Positions 40,409 through 46,716 of a DNA stretch of 64,000 nucleotides are shown in pieces. Both the position numbers and the translations under genes were made by a program. The notes under the pieces were generated by a model. The model did not search any database. It was not told the origin of the DNA and saw only the letters and a list, made by a program, of their open reading frames with translations. This stretch comes from Escherichia coli (GTDB lineage: Bacteria; Pseudomonadota; Gammaproteobacteria; Enterobacterales; Enterobacteriaceae): assembly GCF_045037415.1 (NCBI RefSeq), contig NZ_CP173438.1; one strand, 5' to 3'. Position 1 is the stretch's first letter, and every line of letters starts with the position of its first letter.

Positions 40409-41520
40409 TGCGCAGCTCCTGGTTTGGCCTCACCAATCACCACTTCATCGCCCGCTTCCAGCCCTTTGACAATCTCAACATCGGTATCGTTACGTGCGCC
40501 AATCGTCACTTCACGCTCGCGTGTTTCACCATTACGCAACAATTTGACTTTATAACGATTATCGCCAACCGGATCGCCTAACGCCGACAGAGGGATCGTC
40601 AGCACATTTTTCACATCGGTGAGCTGAATATGCACTTGCGCGGTCATATCCAGCCGCAGTAAACCATTGGGGTTGGGTACTTCAAAACGGGCGTAATAGA
40701 AAATAGCGTCGTTAATCTTTTCCGGCGTCGGTAGCACATCCTTGATTTGCCCCTCGTAGCGCGTCAGTGGATCGCCAAGCACCGTAAACCAGGCTTTTTG
40801 CCCCGGCTTCAGGTGGATTACATCCGCTTCAGAAACCTGCGCTTTTACCAGCATGGTGCTCATATCTGCCAGCGTCAGAATGTTCGGTGCTTGTTGTGCG
40901 GCAATCACCGTCTGGCCTTGCAGAGTGGTGATTTGCGTGACTTCCCCGGCCATCGGGGCAACGATGCGGGTGTAATCGAGATTGGTTTTAGCCGTATCGA
41001 GAGAGGCCTGATTGCGCTTGATTTGCGCGTCAATGGTGCCAATTTGCGCCTGTTTCACAGCCATCTCCGTCGCGGCGTTATCGAGATCCTGCTGTGAAAC
41101 CGCTTGCGTTTGTGCAAGACGTTGCTGACGGGAATACGTCACCCGCGCCAGTTTCAGCTCCGCTTCCGCCTGCTGCCGCTGCGCGCGTAGCTCCATCAGC
41201 GTTGCTTCCACCTCCTTGATCTGGTTTTCAGCCTGTTCAGGATCAATAACCCCTAAAAGCTGGTCTTTTTTTACTTTATCGCCAATCGCCACCGACAGCG
41301 TTTTCAACTGACCGCTGACCTGCGCGCCCACGTCAACCTTACGCAGCGCGTCCAGCTTTCCGGTCGCCAGCACGCTTTGCTGTAAATCACCGGGGCGCAC
41401 AATCAGCGTCTGATAAGTCGGCACGGGTGCGTTAAGAATTCTCCATAACGTAATCAGCCCGGCGATGACTATCACCATCGCAATAACGTAACGCTTCTTC
41501 ACGGTTTTCCGCTTTTTCAT
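40405..41520 (-). CDS. macA: macrolide exporter periplasmic adaptor MacA
   Basis: [32 protein letters not shown]...; membrane fusion protein; overlaps macB start. Confidence 0.95.
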
Positions 41521-41634
41521 AAATATTCTGAATACTCCATATGCCAATCCGGGTCATTAACTTCAACGAAATATCAACAAAACCCTAAAATTTACGTTAA
41601 TAATCACACTATTGATGTTTGGTTAAGATACGCA

Positions 41635-42627
41635 ATGGTTAAATCGACGTCATGTATAACCATTGATTTCATGAATATGTCGCAGCTAACTGAACGGACC
41701 TTTACGCCATCTGAATCTCTCAGCAGCCTGTCACTTTTTCTTAGTCTGGCACGAGGACAGTGTCGGCCGGGTAAATTCTGGCATCGCCGTAGTTTTCGCC
41801 AGAAATTTTTGCTGCGCTCGTTGATTATGCCGCGTTTAAGCGTTGAGTGGATGAACGAACTTTCCCACTGGCCTAATCTCAATGTGTTGTTAACGCGCCA
41901 GCCGCGACTGCCTGTACGTCTACATCGCCCTTACCTTGCGGCGAATCTTAGCCGTAAGCAATTGCTGGAGGCGTTACGTTACCATTATGCGTTACTCCGC
42001 GGGTGTATGTCGGCGGAAGAATTCAGCTTATATTTGAATACCCCCGGGCTGCAACTGGCGAAGCTGGAAGGCAAAAACGGCGAGCAGTTCACGCTTGAGC
42101 TGACCATGATGATCTCAATGGATAAAGAAGGTGACAGCACCATCCTGTTCCGCAACAGCGAAGGTATTCCTCTGGCAGAGCTCACTTTTACCCTGTGTGA
42201 ATATCAGGGGAAAAGGACGATGTTTATTGGCGGACTGCAAGGCGCAAAATGGGAAATTCCACACCAGGAAATCCAGAATGCGACGAAAGCCTGCCACGGG
42301 CTATTTCCCAAACGCCTCGTGATGGAAGCGGCCTGTCTGTTTGCCCAACGTTTGCAGGTAGAGCAGATTATTGCCGTCAGCAATGAAACGCATATTTACC
42401 GCAGCCTGCGTTATCGCGATAAAGAAGGCAAGATCCATGCCGATTACAACGCTTTCTGGGAATCGGTTGGCGGCGTATGTGATGCTGAACGCCATTACCG
42501 CCTTCCAGCACAGATAGCACGAAAAGAGATTGCCGAAATCGCCAGTAAAAAACGGGCTGAATACCGTCGGCGCTATGAGATGCTCGACGCTATTCAGCCA
42601 CAAATGGCCACGATGTTTTGTAGTTAG
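41635..42627 (+). CDS. ybjX: VirK/YbjX-family protein (DUF535)
   Basis: 330 aa, conserved neighbour of macA in E. coli. Confidence 0.85.
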   Translation: MVKSTSCITIDFMNMSQLTERTFTPSESLSSLSLFLSLARGQCRPGKFWHRRSFRQKFLLRSLIMPRLSVEWMNELSHWPNLNVLLTRQPRLPVRLHRPYLAANLSRKQLLEALRYHYALLRGCMSAEEFSLYLNTPGLQLAKLEGKNGEQFTLELTMMISMDKEGDSTILFRNSEGIPLAELTFTLCEYQGKRTMFIGGLQGAKWEIPHQEIQNATKACHGLFPKRLVMEAACLFAQRLQVEQIIAVSNETHIYRSLRYRDKEGKIHADYNAFWESVGGVCDAERHYRLPAQIARKEIAEIASKKRAEYRRRYEMLDAIQPQMATMFCS

Positions 42628-44282
42628 TCGGCCCGACCGCGCGCCAGCCACAGCACGCGTGAGAACATTTTTTTCAGCAGCGTCGGTACGGAGTCCACAC
42701 CACGACGTCCGGCCTCCATTGCCACTTCAATGGCAAGATCGGGTTTGGAAGAGCGATGGATCGCTTTCGAGATAATTTTGCGCAGATTCATCGGTATATT
42801 TTCCGGGATTTGCGCCACGCGGTGGAACACATCGGAAAATCCCTGGCGATACATAAAATGTTCCATATCCAGCGCCGGTAACGCCGTTAAATGTTCTCGT
42901 TCGGCTTCCCGATCATTATTCAACAGGCTGCGTACCGTAGCGGCATATTTCTTCCCTGCTTCATCGCCATCGACCAGTACATGCCATTCAATCCCCATTC
43001 GCCGGGCAAATTTAACCAGTGGCTTTAGCCCGGACTGGGCAAACTCAATGACCTTGATCCCTTCGGCATCAAAATGATGTCCGCACTGACGCGCCAGTTC
43101 ATTGATAACCCAGGTTTCCGTTTCCCCTTCCACCAGCAGCCAACAACGGGCAAACAGCGATGACGGACGGTTAAAACGAATGTGAAAGGAGATGCGTCGG
43201 CTATCTTCGGTACTCAAGCCACTCGGTCCCAGACGCCAGGCGGCAACGCGAGAGGACTCACGTACCAGTCGGCAAACATGCTCTACCGGCGTTAACGAAA
43301 GCAACTCTCCCGAGTTGGTAGTAGCGATGCGCTGCAATGGCAGAAGGTTCAACAGATGCCAGGCAACTGAAAGCATAATGGGGTGCAAACGGGTTTCTGG
43401 ATCTTCGATCAGCAACAATGGACGGGCGTCTTTATCCAGTCGCAATGTGCCTTTTGCCTGCAACAAAGTAGCAAACAGGCCGAGCAAAATAACCCGATAC
43501 GAGCGCCCTCCAGGTCGGTCAATCATCCGGTTGATGATATCCAGATAGCGCCAGCTTCGTTGCTCATTGCTGGCTCGCCGCCGCATTAAACGATATCGCG
43601 CCTGTCCAGCTCCCTGCTCAGAAAAATAATGCTCAAGCAGTTGCACCATTGCGGAAAGTCCCTGACGAATCTGTCCATCAGAGAGATTTTGCGGATGTGA
43701 GGACAACTCACGGGCGAGGAAATCGAGCTGGCGCGCGGTGACTTCCACATTGGGGACATTTGGCACCGTGCCGTTACGAATACGGCGCATAAAACGGGCA
43801 TCACGCAAGCGCAGCACCGGCATTAAACGCACCAGATGACGAGCCTGATCGTTAATATCCTCAACATCAATCGGATGTCCGTCTTTATCGAGAAAACTGC
43901 GCAGTGTCATCACGCTGCCGTCTTCCGCACTCTCCCCTTCCAGACGATAAAAAATACGGTGATAACCATCGGTGCATGGCGTCCAGCACGCTTCCAGCGG
44001 CCGATAGCGGCGAACCCGATGTCGGCCTGGCAGCGATTCGCGGAAGGTCAAAATAATATGCAGATGATGTTCTCGCCCGTTGATATCTCCCGGCGGGAAC
44101 CAGAAATCATCGCGCTCAAAATGGTAGAGATCTGATTCTGGCGATAGCAGCAGGGTTAAGGCGTCCAGCAAGCTGGATTTACCCCACGCGTTCTCCCCAA
44201 TCAGGACGTTGTTTTGTTCCAGCATCAACGACAAACGGTTGATACCGCGAAAACCCACAATTTCAACGCGCTCAAGAATCAT
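42624..44282 (-). CDS. ybjD: OLD-family ATP-dependent endonuclease-like protein (AAA ATPase + TOPRIM-like)
   Basis: 552 aa, N-terminal ...IVGFRGINRLSLMLEQNNVLIGENAWGKSSLLDAL... ATPase motif; conserved between ybjX and aqpZ. Confidence 0.85.
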   Translation of the reverse strand: MILERVEIVGFRGINRLSLMLEQNNVLIGENAWGKSSLLDALTLLLSPESDLYHFERDDFWFPPGDINGREHHLHIILTFRESLPGRHRVRRYRPLEACWTPCTDGYHRIFYRLEGESAEDGSVMTLRSFLDKDGHPIDVEDINDQARHLVRLMPVLRLRDARFMRRIRNGTVPNVPNVEVTARQLDFLARELSSHPQNLSDGQIRQGLSAMVQLLEHYFSEQGAGQARYRLMRRRASNEQRSWRYLDIINRMIDRPGGRSYRVILLGLFATLLQAKGTLRLDKDARPLLLIEDPETRLHPIMLSVAWHLLNLLPLQRIATTNSGELLSLTPVEHVCRLVRESSRVAAWRLGPSGLSTEDSRRISFHIRFNRPSSLFARCWLLVEGETETWVINELARQCGHHFDAEGIKVIEFAQSGLKPLVKFARRMGIEWHVLVDGDEAGKKYAATVRSLLNNDREAEREHLTALPALDMEHFMYRQGFSDVFHRVAQIPENIPMNLRKIISKAIHRSSKPDLAIEVAMEAGRRGVDSVPTLLKKMFSRVLWLARGRAD

Positions 44283-44706
44283 ATCCCCTCCAGAAATATG
44301 TGACTTATTCTTTACGCTGGCAGTATAACGGGAAAGGCCTGCTAATACGTGATGGCATCACATTTAAGCATGGCAAATGTCTGAAAAATGAGCGAATAAT
44401 CGCGTTATACTCCCTCTTGCTGATAAGCCTGCAAAAACAACAAAATCAAATAATTAGCATGATAAATTATTTTTTATTACGCCTAAAGGATTAAATCTTT
44501 CGCTTGCACTACACTGTCAATCAGACAAATGACTATATGGGGCAACCCGCTGTTGCCCTAAATCAAATTTACTGGATTTATTTATCTGGCGAATGATTTG
44601 CCTTCGTTTTTAAAATAGCCGCGCATTATTTCCGTCGTCACTTTTTTACGACGACCCTATAAAACGACCATATTTTTCACAGGGTCAATTTTTAATTGAG
44701 GTGGAT

Positions 44707-45402
44707 ATGTTCAGAAAATTAGCAGCTGAATGTTTTGGTACTTTCTGGCTTGTTTTTGGCGGCTGTGGTAGTGCCGTACTGGCCGCAGGCTTCCCGGAAT
44801 TAGGCATTGGTTTTGCCGGCGTGGCGTTGGCGTTCGGTCTGACCGTTCTGACAATGGCCTTTGCTGTTGGTCATATTTCTGGTGGTCATTTTAACCCGGC
44901 GGTCACTATTGGTTTATGGGCTGGCGGACGTTTCCCGGCAAAAGAAGTCGTTGGCTACGTAATTGCCCAGGTTGTCGGCGGTATTGTTGCGGCGGCGCTG
45001 CTGTATTTAATTGCCAGTGGTAAAACGGGTTTTGACGCGGCAGCCAGCGGTTTTGCTTCTAACGGTTATGGCGAGCATTCACCAGGCGGTTATTCCATGC
45101 TTTCCGCGCTGGTAGTTGAACTGGTATTGAGTGCAGGTTTCCTGCTGGTGATCCACGGCGCAACTGACAAATTCGCTCCTGCTGGTTTTGCGCCAATTGC
45201 CATTGGTCTGGCCTTAACCCTGATTCACTTAATCAGTATTCCGGTGACTAACACTTCCGTTAACCCGGCGCGCAGTACTGCGGTTGCTATCTTCCAGGGC
45301 GGCTGGGCATTAAAACAACTGTGGTTCTTCTGGGTGGTGCCAATTGTCGGCGGTATTATCGGTGGTCTGATTTACCGGACTCTACTGGAAAAGCGTAATT
45401 AA
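44707..45402 (+). CDS. aqpZ: aquaporin Z
   Basis: [27 protein letters not shown]..., two NPA motifs (HFNPAV, VNPAR). Confidence 0.97.
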
Positions 45403-45410
45403 TTAACGCA

Positions 45411-45441
45411 GAAGGCCTGGCGCAATGTCAGGCCTTTTTTT
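45411..45441 (+). terminator. aqpZ rho-independent terminator
   Basis: GAAGGCCTGGCGCAATGTCAGGCCTTTTTTT. Confidence 0.65.
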
Positions 45442-45489
45442 AAGATGTTGTTATATGTTGATTCATCATCTTGTTGCGCTCCTTTCATG

Positions 45490-45665
45490 AGCTAAGCCAC
45501 ATATTGCCACTGGCGCAAGGAGCGTGCAGGGGGCGGCCAATCGCCGCCGCCCCCTGCACCCCCGGGCTCTGGCGAACAAAATCGCCGCTGCGCGGTGCCC
45601 TCGACTTATCCCTTACGGCTACCGGGTCGGCGATTTTGACGCCACCAACACCGGTGCGGTTTGTA
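45490..45665. other. GC-rich, highly structured intergenic element (nested perfect hairpins)
   Basis: 14-bp perfect stem GTGCAGGGGGCGGC/GCCGCCCCCTGCAC and 10-bp stem AAAATCGCCG/CGGCGATTTT in an otherwise AT-rich intergenic region. Confidence 0.5.
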
Positions 45666-45816
45666 ATTAAAGCGCAAGAATATCTTTAAATGAAAATGAA
45701 TACCCTACCGATCCTTATGCATAACATTTCCTTTTAATTGCAACTTTACTCGTCCTTCCGCTTTCAGTAGTGTGTCATCGCGCATTTCGAATCTTCTTTG
45801 CAAGGACTGGGTTTTC

Positions 45817-46716
45817 ATGTTTTCTGGGCTGTTAATCATTCTGGTTCCCCTGATTGTGGGTTACCTCATTCCGCTTCGCCAAAAAGCTGCATTAAGAGTT
45901 ATTAATCAGCTCTTAAGCTGGATGGTTTACCTTATTCTCTTTTTTATGGGTATCAGTCTGGCGTTTCTCGATAACCTCGCCAGTAACTTGTTGGCAATTC
46001 TGCATTATTCTGCCGTCAGTACTACCGTTATTTTACTGTGTAATATTGCCGCCCTGATGTGGCTGGAGCGCGGCCTGCCATGGAGCAACCACCATCAGCA
46101 AGAAAAACTCCCGTCGCGTATTGCGATGGCGCTGGAGTCGCTAAAACTGTGCGGCGTAGTAGTGATTGGTTTTGCCATTGGTCTGAGTGGACTGGCTTTC
46201 TTACAACACGCGACCGAAGCCAGTGAATACACCTTAATTCTGCTGCTTTTCCTCGTCGGTATTCAGTTGCGCAATAATGGCATGACCTTAAAGCAGATTG
46301 TCCTTAATCGCCGGGGAATGATTGTCGCCGTGGTGGTGGTTGCCAGTTCATTAATTGGTGGTTTAATTAACGCCTTTATTCTTGATCTTCCCATCAATAC
46401 CGCGCTGGCAATGGCCTCCGGTTTCGGCTGGTATTCTCTTTCCGGTATTTTATTGACCGAATCTTTTGGTCCGGTAATCGGGAGCGCGGCGTTTTTTAAT
46501 GATCTGGCCCGTGAGCTGATTGCTATTATGTTAATCCCTGGGCTGATTCGCCGTAGCCGCTCTACTGCACTGGGCTTATGCGGTGCGACGTCGATGGATT
46601 TCACCCTGCCCGTTCTTCAACGTACAGGCGGGCTGGATATGGTCCCGGCGGCGATTGTTCACGGTTTTATTCTTAGTCTGTTAGTGCCGATTCTCATCGC
46701 CTTTTTCTCTGCATAA
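45817..46716 (+). CDS. lysO: lysine exporter LysO
   Basis: MFSGLLIILVPLIVGYLIPLRQK...; polytopic membrane protein, 299 aa from this start. Confidence 0.9.
   Translation: MFSGLLIILVPLIVGYLIPLRQKAALRVINQLLSWMVYLILFFMGISLAFLDNLASNLLAILHYSAVSTTVILLCNIAALMWLERGLPWSNHHQQEKLPSRIAMALESLKLCGVVVIGFAIGLSGLAFLQHATEASEYTLILLLFLVGIQLRNNGMTLKQIVLNRRGMIVAVVVVASSLIGGLINAFILDLPINTALAMASGFGWYSLSGILLTESFGPVIGSAAFFNDLARELIAIMLIPGLIRRSRSTALGLCGATSMDFTLPVLQRTGGLDMVPAAIVHGFILSLLVPILIAFFSA

Follow-up and report, generated by a model that had tools for sequence, protein, structure and literature searches.

ybjD, a stand-alone OLD-family gene in the conserved chromosome of Escherichia coli

In the stretch of 64,000 nucleotides of Escherichia coli DNA analysed here (the window), ybjD is an intact, monocistronic, stand-alone gene of the OLD family, belonging by identity and architecture to the DUF2813 subfamily. 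Its distribution points to an OLD subfamily passed on by vertical descent, its place in the chromosome unchanged, throughout the Enterobacterales. Our preferred overall explanation, held with moderate confidence, is that YbjD is a solo, ATP-gated OLD nuclease with vertical inheritance and a role outside the defence arms race. That YbjD is an OLD homolog has been known since at least 2019, and experiments followed in 2026; new here are the order-wide synteny, the taxonomy-tracking identity, the dN/dS values and the constraint on the nuclease site. They pose a twofold puzzle. In bacteria the OLD family is otherwise known only from phage defence, yet YbjD is a syntenic, strongly constrained core gene order-wide, and the nuclease site, where its conservation is highest, is dispensable for the sole phenotype reported for it.

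The ybjD locus and domain architecture

The ybjD coding sequence lies at 42624..44282 on the minus strand, where the open reading frame (ORF) list gives an ATG start, 552 codons and a TAA stop at 42624-42626; the ORF list thereby confirms both the interval that the initial annotation had given for ybjD and its divergence from aqpZ. A Shine-Dalgarno sequence read off upstream of the ATG, GGAGGGG, occupies 44285..44291 (minus strand). The divergent ybjD-aqpZ intergenic region (44283..44700) is AT-rich, with a GC content of ~0.38 over ~420 bp, and aqpZ (MIP family) begins on the plus strand at 44701 in the ORF list or at an ATG at 44707. Downstream, the convergent ybjX (DUF535) meets ybjD tail-to-tail, and the stop codons of ybjD (TAA) and ybjX (TAG) overlap in the sequence TTAG (42624..42627), so that a terminator would not fit between the two genes. 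This pair is among the convergent excludons detected from RNA-seq coverage (PMC12288877). According to Pfam and the ORF list, the neighbours of ybjD encode DUF535, MIP, LysO, MacA and MacB proteins. Opposite-strand ORFs of 99-118 aa within ybjD are mechanical and have no support as genes, and nine terminator-like matches, mostly inside coding sequence, are matches to the consensus only.

The window ORF and E. coli YbjD (b0876; proposed name OldB; PMC13261556, PMC6755086) are the same gene. Published ybjD cloning primers match both ORF ends (MILERVEIVG... at the 5′ end and ...LWLARGRAD at the 3′ end), the protein matches a cluster of 5302 members at 100% identity, and RefSeq E. coli genomes label the gene 'ybjD: ATP-dependent endonuclease'. 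DNA identity to K-12 is 97.6%; the differences are allelic only, and the window derives from a non-K-12 E. coli lineage.

Scans for regulatory elements gave negative results. A strict sigma-70 scan of 42400-44750 found no ybjD promoter. SOS regulation was rejected, as the ybjD-aqpZ spacer contains no LexA box with one mismatch or fewer, and a structured RNA or retron ncRNA near ybjD was rejected because Rfam gave no hit in 41000-46000 with E values of up to 1. Papers on translesion synthesis that mention ybjD provide no functional link; the aqpZ-ybjD spacer is a neutral insertion site in that work.

The combined ATPase and Toprim organisation of OLD proteins, which the initial annotation had read from sequence alone, was recovered by Pfam, PADLOC, an AlphaFold (AF2) model and Foldseek. 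The N-terminal ABC-type ATPase (residues 1-375; 43158..44282, minus strand) matches Pfam DUF2813 (E 2e-160) and additionally AAA_15, AAA_21 and SMC_N. Conservation was scored over 49 distant relatives with 28-54% identity to YbjD. The Walker A motif, G29-E-N-A-W-G-K35-S36 (44175..44198, minus strand), is kept in these relatives as GENAWGKS; G29 and E30 are invariant, and the residue at K35 is K in 44/49, R in 4/49 and S in 1/49. In a segment comprising Walker B, D-loop and H-loop (L289-LLIEDPETRLHP-301; 43380..43418, minus strand), E293 and E296 are each conserved in 45/49 and H300 and P301 each in 48/49; its aligned counterparts are 'IEEPEISLH' in GajA and 'IDEPELYLHP' in P2 Old. Conservation of GENAWGKS and LLLIEDPETRLHP among the relatives marks the domain as an OLD-type ATPase. 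An ABC signature-like motif appears degenerate in the E. coli subclade, which makes canonical ATP-driven head engagement in YbjD uncertain.

The ATPase is interrupted by a helical insertion (residues 161-280; 43443..43802, minus strand), in which the AF2 secondary structure places four helices within residues 177-277. Model confidence is lower here (pLDDT 42-85), and this is the least conserved region of the protein (mean identity 0.18). By analogy with Thermus OLD and GajA (PMC10568477), the insertion is probably the counterpart of the OLD dimerisation domain. Relatives of 800-1900 aa carry an insertion rich in Ala, Ser, Gly and Gln; a Rad50/SMC-like coiled coil was rejected for it, as the inserted sequence is low-complexity and not heptad-like.

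The Toprim domain (residues 376-467; 42882..43157, minus strand) contains the motifs E385-G-E387-T-E389 and D438-G-D440, and residues 376-440 match Pfam OLD-like_TOPRIM (E 4e-16), identifying it as an OLD Toprim. It is the most conserved region of YbjD (mean identity 0.55), and all five of its acidic residues (E385, E387, E389, D438 and D440) are the same in each of the 49 relatives. The C-terminal helical domain (residues 468-552; 42627..42881, minus strand) carries D472, E474 and K513, likewise invariant in 49/49. The two-metal site of Burkholderia pseudomallei OLD includes E404, T506/E508 and the catalytic lysine K562 (PMC6755086); E389, D472, E474 and K513 of YbjD follow the expected order and spacing, and on this ground D472/E474/K513 may be equivalent to its second-metal residues and lysine.

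Relationship to characterised OLD proteins

The AF2 model of YbjD has a pLDDT of 87 and a pTM of 0.86, and its ATPase part folds as an ABC-ATPase, resembling GajA, Thermus OLD and SMC heads. The top 21 Foldseek matches in the PDB are all GajA, Thermus OLD or retron Eco8 OLD (GajA, E 1e-18 and TM 0.50-0.59; Thermus OLD 6p74, E 5e-17). Thermus scotoductus OLD (6p74) and Bacillus cereus GajA (8sm3, 8x5i) share the overall fold (TM 0.46-0.59), the helical insert in the ATPase and the acidic Toprim motifs with YbjD, although sequence identity is just 12-18%. GajA partners the GajB helicase, whereas the YbjD locus lacks GajB.

Schiltz et al. (2019) used YbjD/b0876 as a seed OLD homolog and placed E. 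coli among the Class 1 OLD genes (PMC6755086). Class 1 is defined by context, as a single isolated gene, and ybjD is such a gene. The hallmarks of the other classes were not found. For Class 2 (GajA), no UvrD/PcrA-like helicase occurs in the window flanks, in 80 Enterobacterales loci or in 10 distant neighbourhoods. For Class 3 (retron), there is no reverse-transcriptase ORF among the neighbours and no Rfam match in 41000-46000. For Class 4 (PARIS), ATPase and Toprim reside in one 552-aa ORF, not in separate AriA and AriB proteins, and the matches of AriA models extend no further than the N-terminal P-loop region of YbjD.

P2 Old, like YbjD, is the product of a single gene and combines an ABC ATPase with a Toprim, and the two align from Walker B to Toprim (28% identity, E 4e-12). 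P2 Old is an accessory protein carried by a prophage, which is set off when RecBCD is inhibited and then cuts tRNA (PMC12445682); YbjD, in contrast, is chromosomal, core and not RecBC-linked (PMC13261556). The PADLOC Old model matches YbjD at 84 bits in two partial stretches, compared with 712 bits over the full length of P2 Old, so a strong full-length match that would place YbjD in the P2 Old-like subfamily was not found in PADLOC. Vc OLD of Vibrio cholerae, a Class 1 nickase (PMC12392090), resembles YbjD in being solo, bacterially encoded and RecBCD-independent. Vc OLD defends at native level and needs its ATPase residues, whereas YbjD has no deletion phenotype and its K35A variant keeps the overexpression phenotype (PMC13261556).

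Conservation, synteny and selection

The claim that ybjD is a core gene was upheld: it is present in 5424/5426 complete E. coli genomes, with gene coverage of 80% or more and identities of 95.8-100%, and its synteny extends across the Enterobacterales. Among the 80 Enterobacterales loci to which the scan was limited, 79 keep at least one syntenic neighbour, and the arrangement hcp-lysO-ybjD...clpSA is kept across Enterobacteriaceae, Serratia and Pectobacterium. Over the order, ybjD identity drops from 97% to 66%, tracking taxonomy. Loci without ybjX-macAB continue with clpS-clpA, a pair that E. coli also has, at a greater distance in the same direction. The additional DNA that follows ybjD in some genera was considered as a source of partner genes, and this was rejected, as its content is a DUF535 paralogue (a second one in Kluyvera) or clpS-clpA (in Pectobacterium and Mangrovibacter). 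More distant DUF2813 relatives are solo genes in 10/10 distinct neighbourhoods sampled, mostly among housekeeping genes, and no helicase, retron or defence neighbour was seen in these loci. PADLOC gave no match for the four neighbours tested (YbjX, AqpZ, LysO and MacA); with neighbours lacking defence models, conserved synteny and identity that tracks taxonomy, residence of ybjD in a defence island was not observed.

Essentially all E. coli, and relatives in three Enterobacterales families, have an intact ybjD reading frame. In comparison with E. albertii, dN/dS of ybjD is 0.016 (macB, 0.026; aqpZ, 0.032; ybjX, 0.062), and against more distant genera it is 0.028-0.125, similar to neighbouring housekeeping genes. 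Constraint is unevenly distributed within the protein: in 7/7 comparisons the ATPase half had about twice the dN of the Toprim half, and the nuclease residues never vary among the 49 relatives, as opposed to conservation in 44/49 for Walker A K35, so that the nuclease site is more constrained than the ATPase. An IS1 insertion interrupts ybjD in one E. coli strain, and truncated YbjD variants occur among database clusters. Conservation this strong is also compatible with defence against a constant threat.

Phage phenotypes and possible roles

The initial annotation called the role of ybjD unknown and proposed phage challenge of a deletion and an overexpression strain. The first statement is slightly outdated, as the challenge has since been published by Atahualpa et al. 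(2026; PMC13261556), with no effect of deletion and weak restriction of a few phages on overexpression. The gene is natively expressed and non-essential, its deletion has no reported phenotype, and phage susceptibility of the Keio deletion is unchanged (PMC13261556), which, by the criterion for refutation that the initial annotation had set, speaks against a part in defence at native levels of expression. When YbjD was expressed from pBAD, plaquing of Bas18 and Bas20 was reduced and plaques of Bas64-68 were smaller; this effect required the ATPase domain, while Toprim was dispensable (PMC13261556). The K35A variant kept the phenotype with higher toxicity, and overexpression toxicity was RecBC-independent (PMC13261556). 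A housekeeping phenotype of a ybjD mutant was not found in the literature that could be searched.

Solved or assayed OLD proteins provide the basis for a mechanism that we consider somewhat more probable than not, an ATP-gated DNA nuclease. YbjD would dimerise by way of the helices inserted into its ABC-type ATPase, and nucleotide at the Walker A/B site would gate the access of DNA to the C-terminal two-metal Toprim nuclease. DNA would be nicked or degraded at a putative site formed by E385/E389, D438/D440, D472/E474 and K513. Vertical inheritance, strong purifying selection and a nuclease site that is the most constrained part of the protein together suggest that the selected role is stable, lineage-wide and nuclease-requiring. 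The anti-phage effect of overexpression, for which Toprim is not needed, may then be a secondary activity exerted by the ATPase half. Low-level nucleic-acid surveillance or maintenance is the likelier role, in our estimate, than that of an arms-race defence module; whether the role is altogether other than classical defence we judge to be evenly balanced.

YbjD could instead be a dedicated single-gene Class 1 anti-phage system like Vc OLD or P2 Old, active natively against other phages or mobile elements, triggered by infection and nicking replicating phage DNA. We regard this as rather unlikely, though by no means negligible. It accords with membership in the OLD family (Pfam, Foldseek), all of whose characterised bacterial proteins are defence proteins (PMC10568477, PMC12392090), with the effects of induced YbjD on Bas18/Bas20 plaquing and Bas64-68 plaque size (PMC13261556), and with a toxicity that is independent of RecBC (PMC13261556), as Vc OLD is of RecBCD (PMC12392090). 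However, deletion leaves phage susceptibility unchanged (PMC13261556), and the overexpression effect needs neither Toprim nor K35 although conservation peaks at the Toprim site. Synteny throughout the order, vertical descent and dN/dS values of 0.016-0.125 are atypical of defence genes, PADLOC on the neighbours places ybjD outside any defence island, and the PADLOC Old model scores YbjD poorly (84 bits; P2 Old, 712). Class 1 OLD is moreover found in only 0.45% of genomes by DefenseFinder (PMC12392090), a figure suggesting that YbjD, being ubiquitous, is left out of that tally.

Two further origins would make YbjD a remnant. An orphaned Gabija GajA (Class 2 OLD) that has lost GajB would account for the best PADLOC match of YbjD, the GajA-labelled model PDLC00094 (267 bits), and for GajA chains being the best structural matches of the model, and Class 2 is nested within Class 1 in the published tree (PMC12796447). 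Nevertheless, PDLC00094 fits solo relatives better, matching them full length at 309-364 bits, and is in practice a profile of the solo subfamily; a UvrD-like gene is absent beside ybjD in the window, and the helicase was found in 0/90 contexts examined (80 Enterobacterales loci and 10 distant DUF2813 neighbourhoods). Nor would a remnant show dN/dS of 0.016-0.125 and an invariant active site, and we rejected this origin as highly improbable. A decaying relic with no selected function, its overexpression effects being artefacts, would fit a non-essential gene with no reported deletion phenotype (PMC13261556), the IS1 insertion in one strain and the truncated variants among clusters. Against it stand the intact frame in essentially all E. 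coli and three Enterobacterales families, the same dN/dS range, and catalytic residues that are invariant at 28-54% identity; the selection analysis effectively refutes it, leaving it almost no probability.

At somewhat less than even odds, we also entertain a parallel with Cran1, an OLD-family ATPase of the Sulfolobales that acts in the cell cycle (PMC12796447): in bacteria, the YbjD/DUF2813 clade may correspond to this archaeal protein and may have left the defence arms race as a vertically inherited core gene. The invariant Toprim may in that case serve repair, replication-associated processing or chromosome maintenance, the anti-phage effect being incidental. A non-defence function would assign a role to one fully uncharacterised gene of E. 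coli K-12, and would mean that OLD proteins in bacteria, as with Cran1 in archaea, have been co-opted for functions of the cell. The Cran1 clade is taxonomically homogeneous and vertically inherited, as is that of YbjD; neither protein has an apparent defence phenotype, and in both the phenotype studied needs the ATPase and not the nuclease. The likeness drawn here is one of behaviour; Cran1 is archaeal and essential, whereas YbjD is non-essential and has an invariant nuclease site.

The ybjD locus

The ybjD coding sequence lies at 42624..44282 on the minus strand, where the ORF list holds a 552-codon frame starting with ATG; a Shine-Dalgarno sequence, GGAGGGG, was read 5′ of the start on the same strand. 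The gene is divergent from aqpZ (MIP family, plus strand, start at 44701 or 44707) across an AT-rich spacer of ~420 bp (GC near 0.38), and convergent with ybjX (DUF535/VirK family, plus strand, 41635-42627). The stop codons of ybjD and ybjX overlap within the tetranucleotide TTAG (42624-42627), and the convergent transcripts must therefore overlap; RNA-seq coverage identifies the pair as a convergent excludon (PMC12288877). Beyond ybjX come macA-macB, and beyond aqpZ come lysO and hcp; the arrangement of ybjD is solo and monocistronic. The initial annotation had given the coordinates, strand and relation to aqpZ correctly.

No LexA box was found in the ybjD-aqpZ spacer, no Rfam family matched around ybjD, a strict scan gave no sigma-70 promoter for the gene, and PADLOC defence models had 0 matches among the four neighbours tested (YbjX, AqpZ, LysO, MacA). 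The mechanical aqpZ ORF opens at GTG 44701 (MDMFRKL...), and the in-frame ATG at 44707 (MFRKL...) is the likelier start. The macA ORF likewise runs upstream to a TTG, ahead of the likely MKKRK start.

Domain organisation and OLD class

By all computable criteria YbjD is a member of the OLD family, and matches in Pfam, the PDB and Foldseek bear out the OLD-type ATPase and Toprim-like organisation first read from the sequence. Pfam places DUF2813 at residues 1-375 (E 2e-160) and OLD-like_TOPRIM at residues 376-440 (E 4e-16), with matches to generic ABC/SMC P-loop families in the first 50 residues. NCBIfam gave no equivalog, and its matches covered the N-terminal P-loop only (MAD3, RecF, PtuA, retron Eco8 effector), all far below cut-offs. 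A PDB sequence search returned GajA (E 7e-5) and Thermus scotoductus OLD (E 2e-3). With an AlphaFold model based on 49 relatives (pLDDT 87, pTM 0.86), the top 21 Foldseek matches in the PDB were OLD proteins only, namely GajA (E 1e-18, TM 0.50-0.59), Thermus OLD (6p74; E 5e-17, TM 0.46) and retron Eco8 OLD (TM 0.42-0.48), followed by PtuA and SMC heads. Within residues 177-277 the model has an ATPase insertion with four helices, in the same position as the dimerisation domain of Thermus OLD and GajA (PMC10568477).

Under the context-based definition, YbjD is a Class 1 OLD. YbjD/b0876 was the query for the OLD homolog survey of Schiltz et al. (2019), which listed E. coli and Salmonella as Class 1, single isolated genes (PMC6755086). 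In a published phylogeny the classes are not monophyletic, Class 2 being nested in Class 1, and many bacterial OLD clades are still uncharacterised (PMC12796447). An alignment of P2 Old and YbjD extends from the signature/Walker B region to the Toprim DxD (28% identity, E 4e-12), but the two are not close by sequence, as the PADLOC Old model gives YbjD 84 bits versus 712 bits for P2 Old. The best PADLOC match of YbjD was PDLC00094, labelled GajA (267 bits). Solo DUF2813 relatives score 309-364 bits on this profile over the whole protein, P2 Old only 93 bits, and in practice it acts as a profile of the solo DUF2813 subfamily. We rejected its label as evidence of Gabija since GajB, the defining partner, is absent; an orphaned Gabija gene is thus a very unlikely account of ybjD, the label tracking the solo subfamily.

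Conserved residues and proposed mechanism

YbjD is intact, with both its ATPase and Toprim parts, the full set of conserved acidic residues and a conserved lysine. Among 49 full-length relatives (28-54% identity), E385, E387, E389, D438, D440, D472, E474 and K513 were invariant (49/49), as were R362, H367, R379, W381, W391 and W433. The Walker A lysine K35 is retained in 44/49 relatives, E293 and E296 in 45/49 each, and H300 in 48/49. In the Toprim domain the mean identity to YbjD was 0.55, versus 0.18 in the helical insert. In a low-confidence alignment, the ABC signature-like motif at residues 256-263 (43494-43517) reads G-S/T-G-x-Q in distant relatives and is degenerate (PGGRSYR) in DUF2813 members from Enterobacterales and other gammaproteobacteria; the degenerate form in the E. 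coli subclade would be compatible with ATP being bound while the heads do not engage in the canonical way.

By analogy with Burkholderia pseudomallei OLD, Thermus OLD, GajA and Vibrio cholerae OLD (PMC6755086, PMC10568477, PMC12392090), YbjD would pair via its helical insert, the Toprim and helical domains would perform two-metal phosphodiester cleavage, and nucleotide binding would regulate cleavage rather than power it. The K35A mutant, which retains the YbjD phenotype with higher toxicity (PMC13261556), fits a regulatory role of ATP.

An exhaustive profile-free search for relatives yielded 335 clusters (50% identity; E up to 1e-30), with named members including Vibrio, Tatumella and Motilimonas; the term DUF2813 occurs in none of the searchable papers. 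Some DUF2813-type proteins reach 800-1900 aa (P0149, P0162, P0163, P0165, P0166, P0175; locus L089, 8001-12446). They keep all catalytic motifs and have two large inserts of low-complexity sequence, rich in Ala, Ser, Gly and Gln, one in the ATPase after ~residue 70 and one in the C-terminal helical domain just ahead of the conserved 'HKKxKPG' lysine; the inserts are neither coiled coils nor helicase fusions. A gene of this long type has rho and an MscK-like channel gene nearby.

Conservation and physiological role

As the initial annotation proposed, ybjD is a core gene, carried by 5424 of 5426 complete E. coli genomes at 95.8-100% identity. Two genomes are without it, and 6/5426 matches fall on plasmid-labelled records. 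In E. coli KA0011 (NZ_AP029163.1, 3221809-3224243), ybjD DNA 100% identical to that of the window is split by IS1, so the gene can be lost in individual strains. When one genome per species was scanned, the best 80 loci were all from Enterobacterales and YbjD identity followed taxonomy: 97% in E. albertii, about 91% in Citrobacter, about 85% in Klebsiella and Enterobacter, about 80% in Buttiauxella and Cedecea, 75% in Mangrovibacter and 66-68% in Serratia, Pectobacterium and Brenneria. The order hcp-lysO-(aqpZ)-ybjD-(ybjX)-macA-macB is held in nearly all of these loci; several genera are without aqpZ and several without ybjX, with ybjD still present, and clpS-clpA come next after ybjD where ybjX-macAB is missing (Pectobacterium, Mangrovibacter). 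No partner gene for ybjD was found anywhere in the 80 loci.

Across other genera YbjX identity is 46-74%, against 79-91% for YbjD in the same genera, and ybjX evolves much faster than its neighbours (~80-95% for YbjD, MacB and Hcp). Genera without it include Klebsiella, Raoultella, Superficieibacter and Pectobacterium; in Kluyvera it is present as a tandem duplicate.

Against E. albertii, dN/dS (Nei-Gojobori) was 0.016 for ybjD at an unsaturated dS of 0.79, versus 0.026 for macB, 0.032 for aqpZ and 0.062 for ybjX; rough values against more distant genera, where dS is saturated, were 0.028-0.125. In 7/7 comparisons, dN of the Toprim and C-terminal half was about half that of the ATPase half. 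Purifying selection on ybjD is strong and concentrated on the nuclease half, and a decaying relic is scarcely credible.

The direct study of ybjD by Atahualpa et al. (2026), who proposed the name oldB, found the gene transcribed in the parent strain (PMC13261556). Low-level pBAD expression challenged with 68 BASEL phages lowered plaquing of Bas18 and Bas20 and gave smaller plaques of Bas64-68, an effect requiring the ATPase domain and not the Toprim domain; recBC(ts) cells are killed by P2 Old but not by YbjD (PMC13261556). Genuine native-level defence, directed at untested phages or mobile elements, is somewhat unlikely. The phage challenge suggested in the initial annotation has been published, and the Keio deletion left phage susceptibility unchanged (PMC13261556), a result that speaks against such a role under the refuting condition set in that annotation. 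The sole reported phenotype is independent of Toprim, yet the Toprim active site is the most strictly conserved part of the protein. The chromosomal place of ybjD is kept across at least three Enterobacterales families, a conservation pattern unlike that of mobile defence modules; it was through a similar pattern that the archaeal OLD-family ATPase Cran1 was found to act in the cell cycle and not in defence (PMC12796447). We put at about even odds that ybjD has a stable, nuclease-dependent role in the surveillance or maintenance of nucleic acids. That ybjD is an OLD homolog was already known, and the earlier interpretation as a whole is supported; the comparative analysis is the added part, and gives a concrete reason for interest in nuclease-dead alleles at the native locus.

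Distant relatives were solo genes in 10/10 distinct neighbourhoods sampled, mostly amid housekeeping genes (pgpA / OLD / dxs-ispA-xseB; cysS / OLD / nrdBA; ushA-like / OLD / cof; rho/mscK / OLD), with a UvrD-like helicase in 0/10. At locus L092, a DUF2813-type gene (832-2532; P0184) directly follows a PhdYeFM-PIN toxin-antitoxin pair, and a co-oriented gene for a family-B DNA polymerase comes 47 bp downstream of it; of the contexts sampled, only this one hints at an operon for DNA metabolism.
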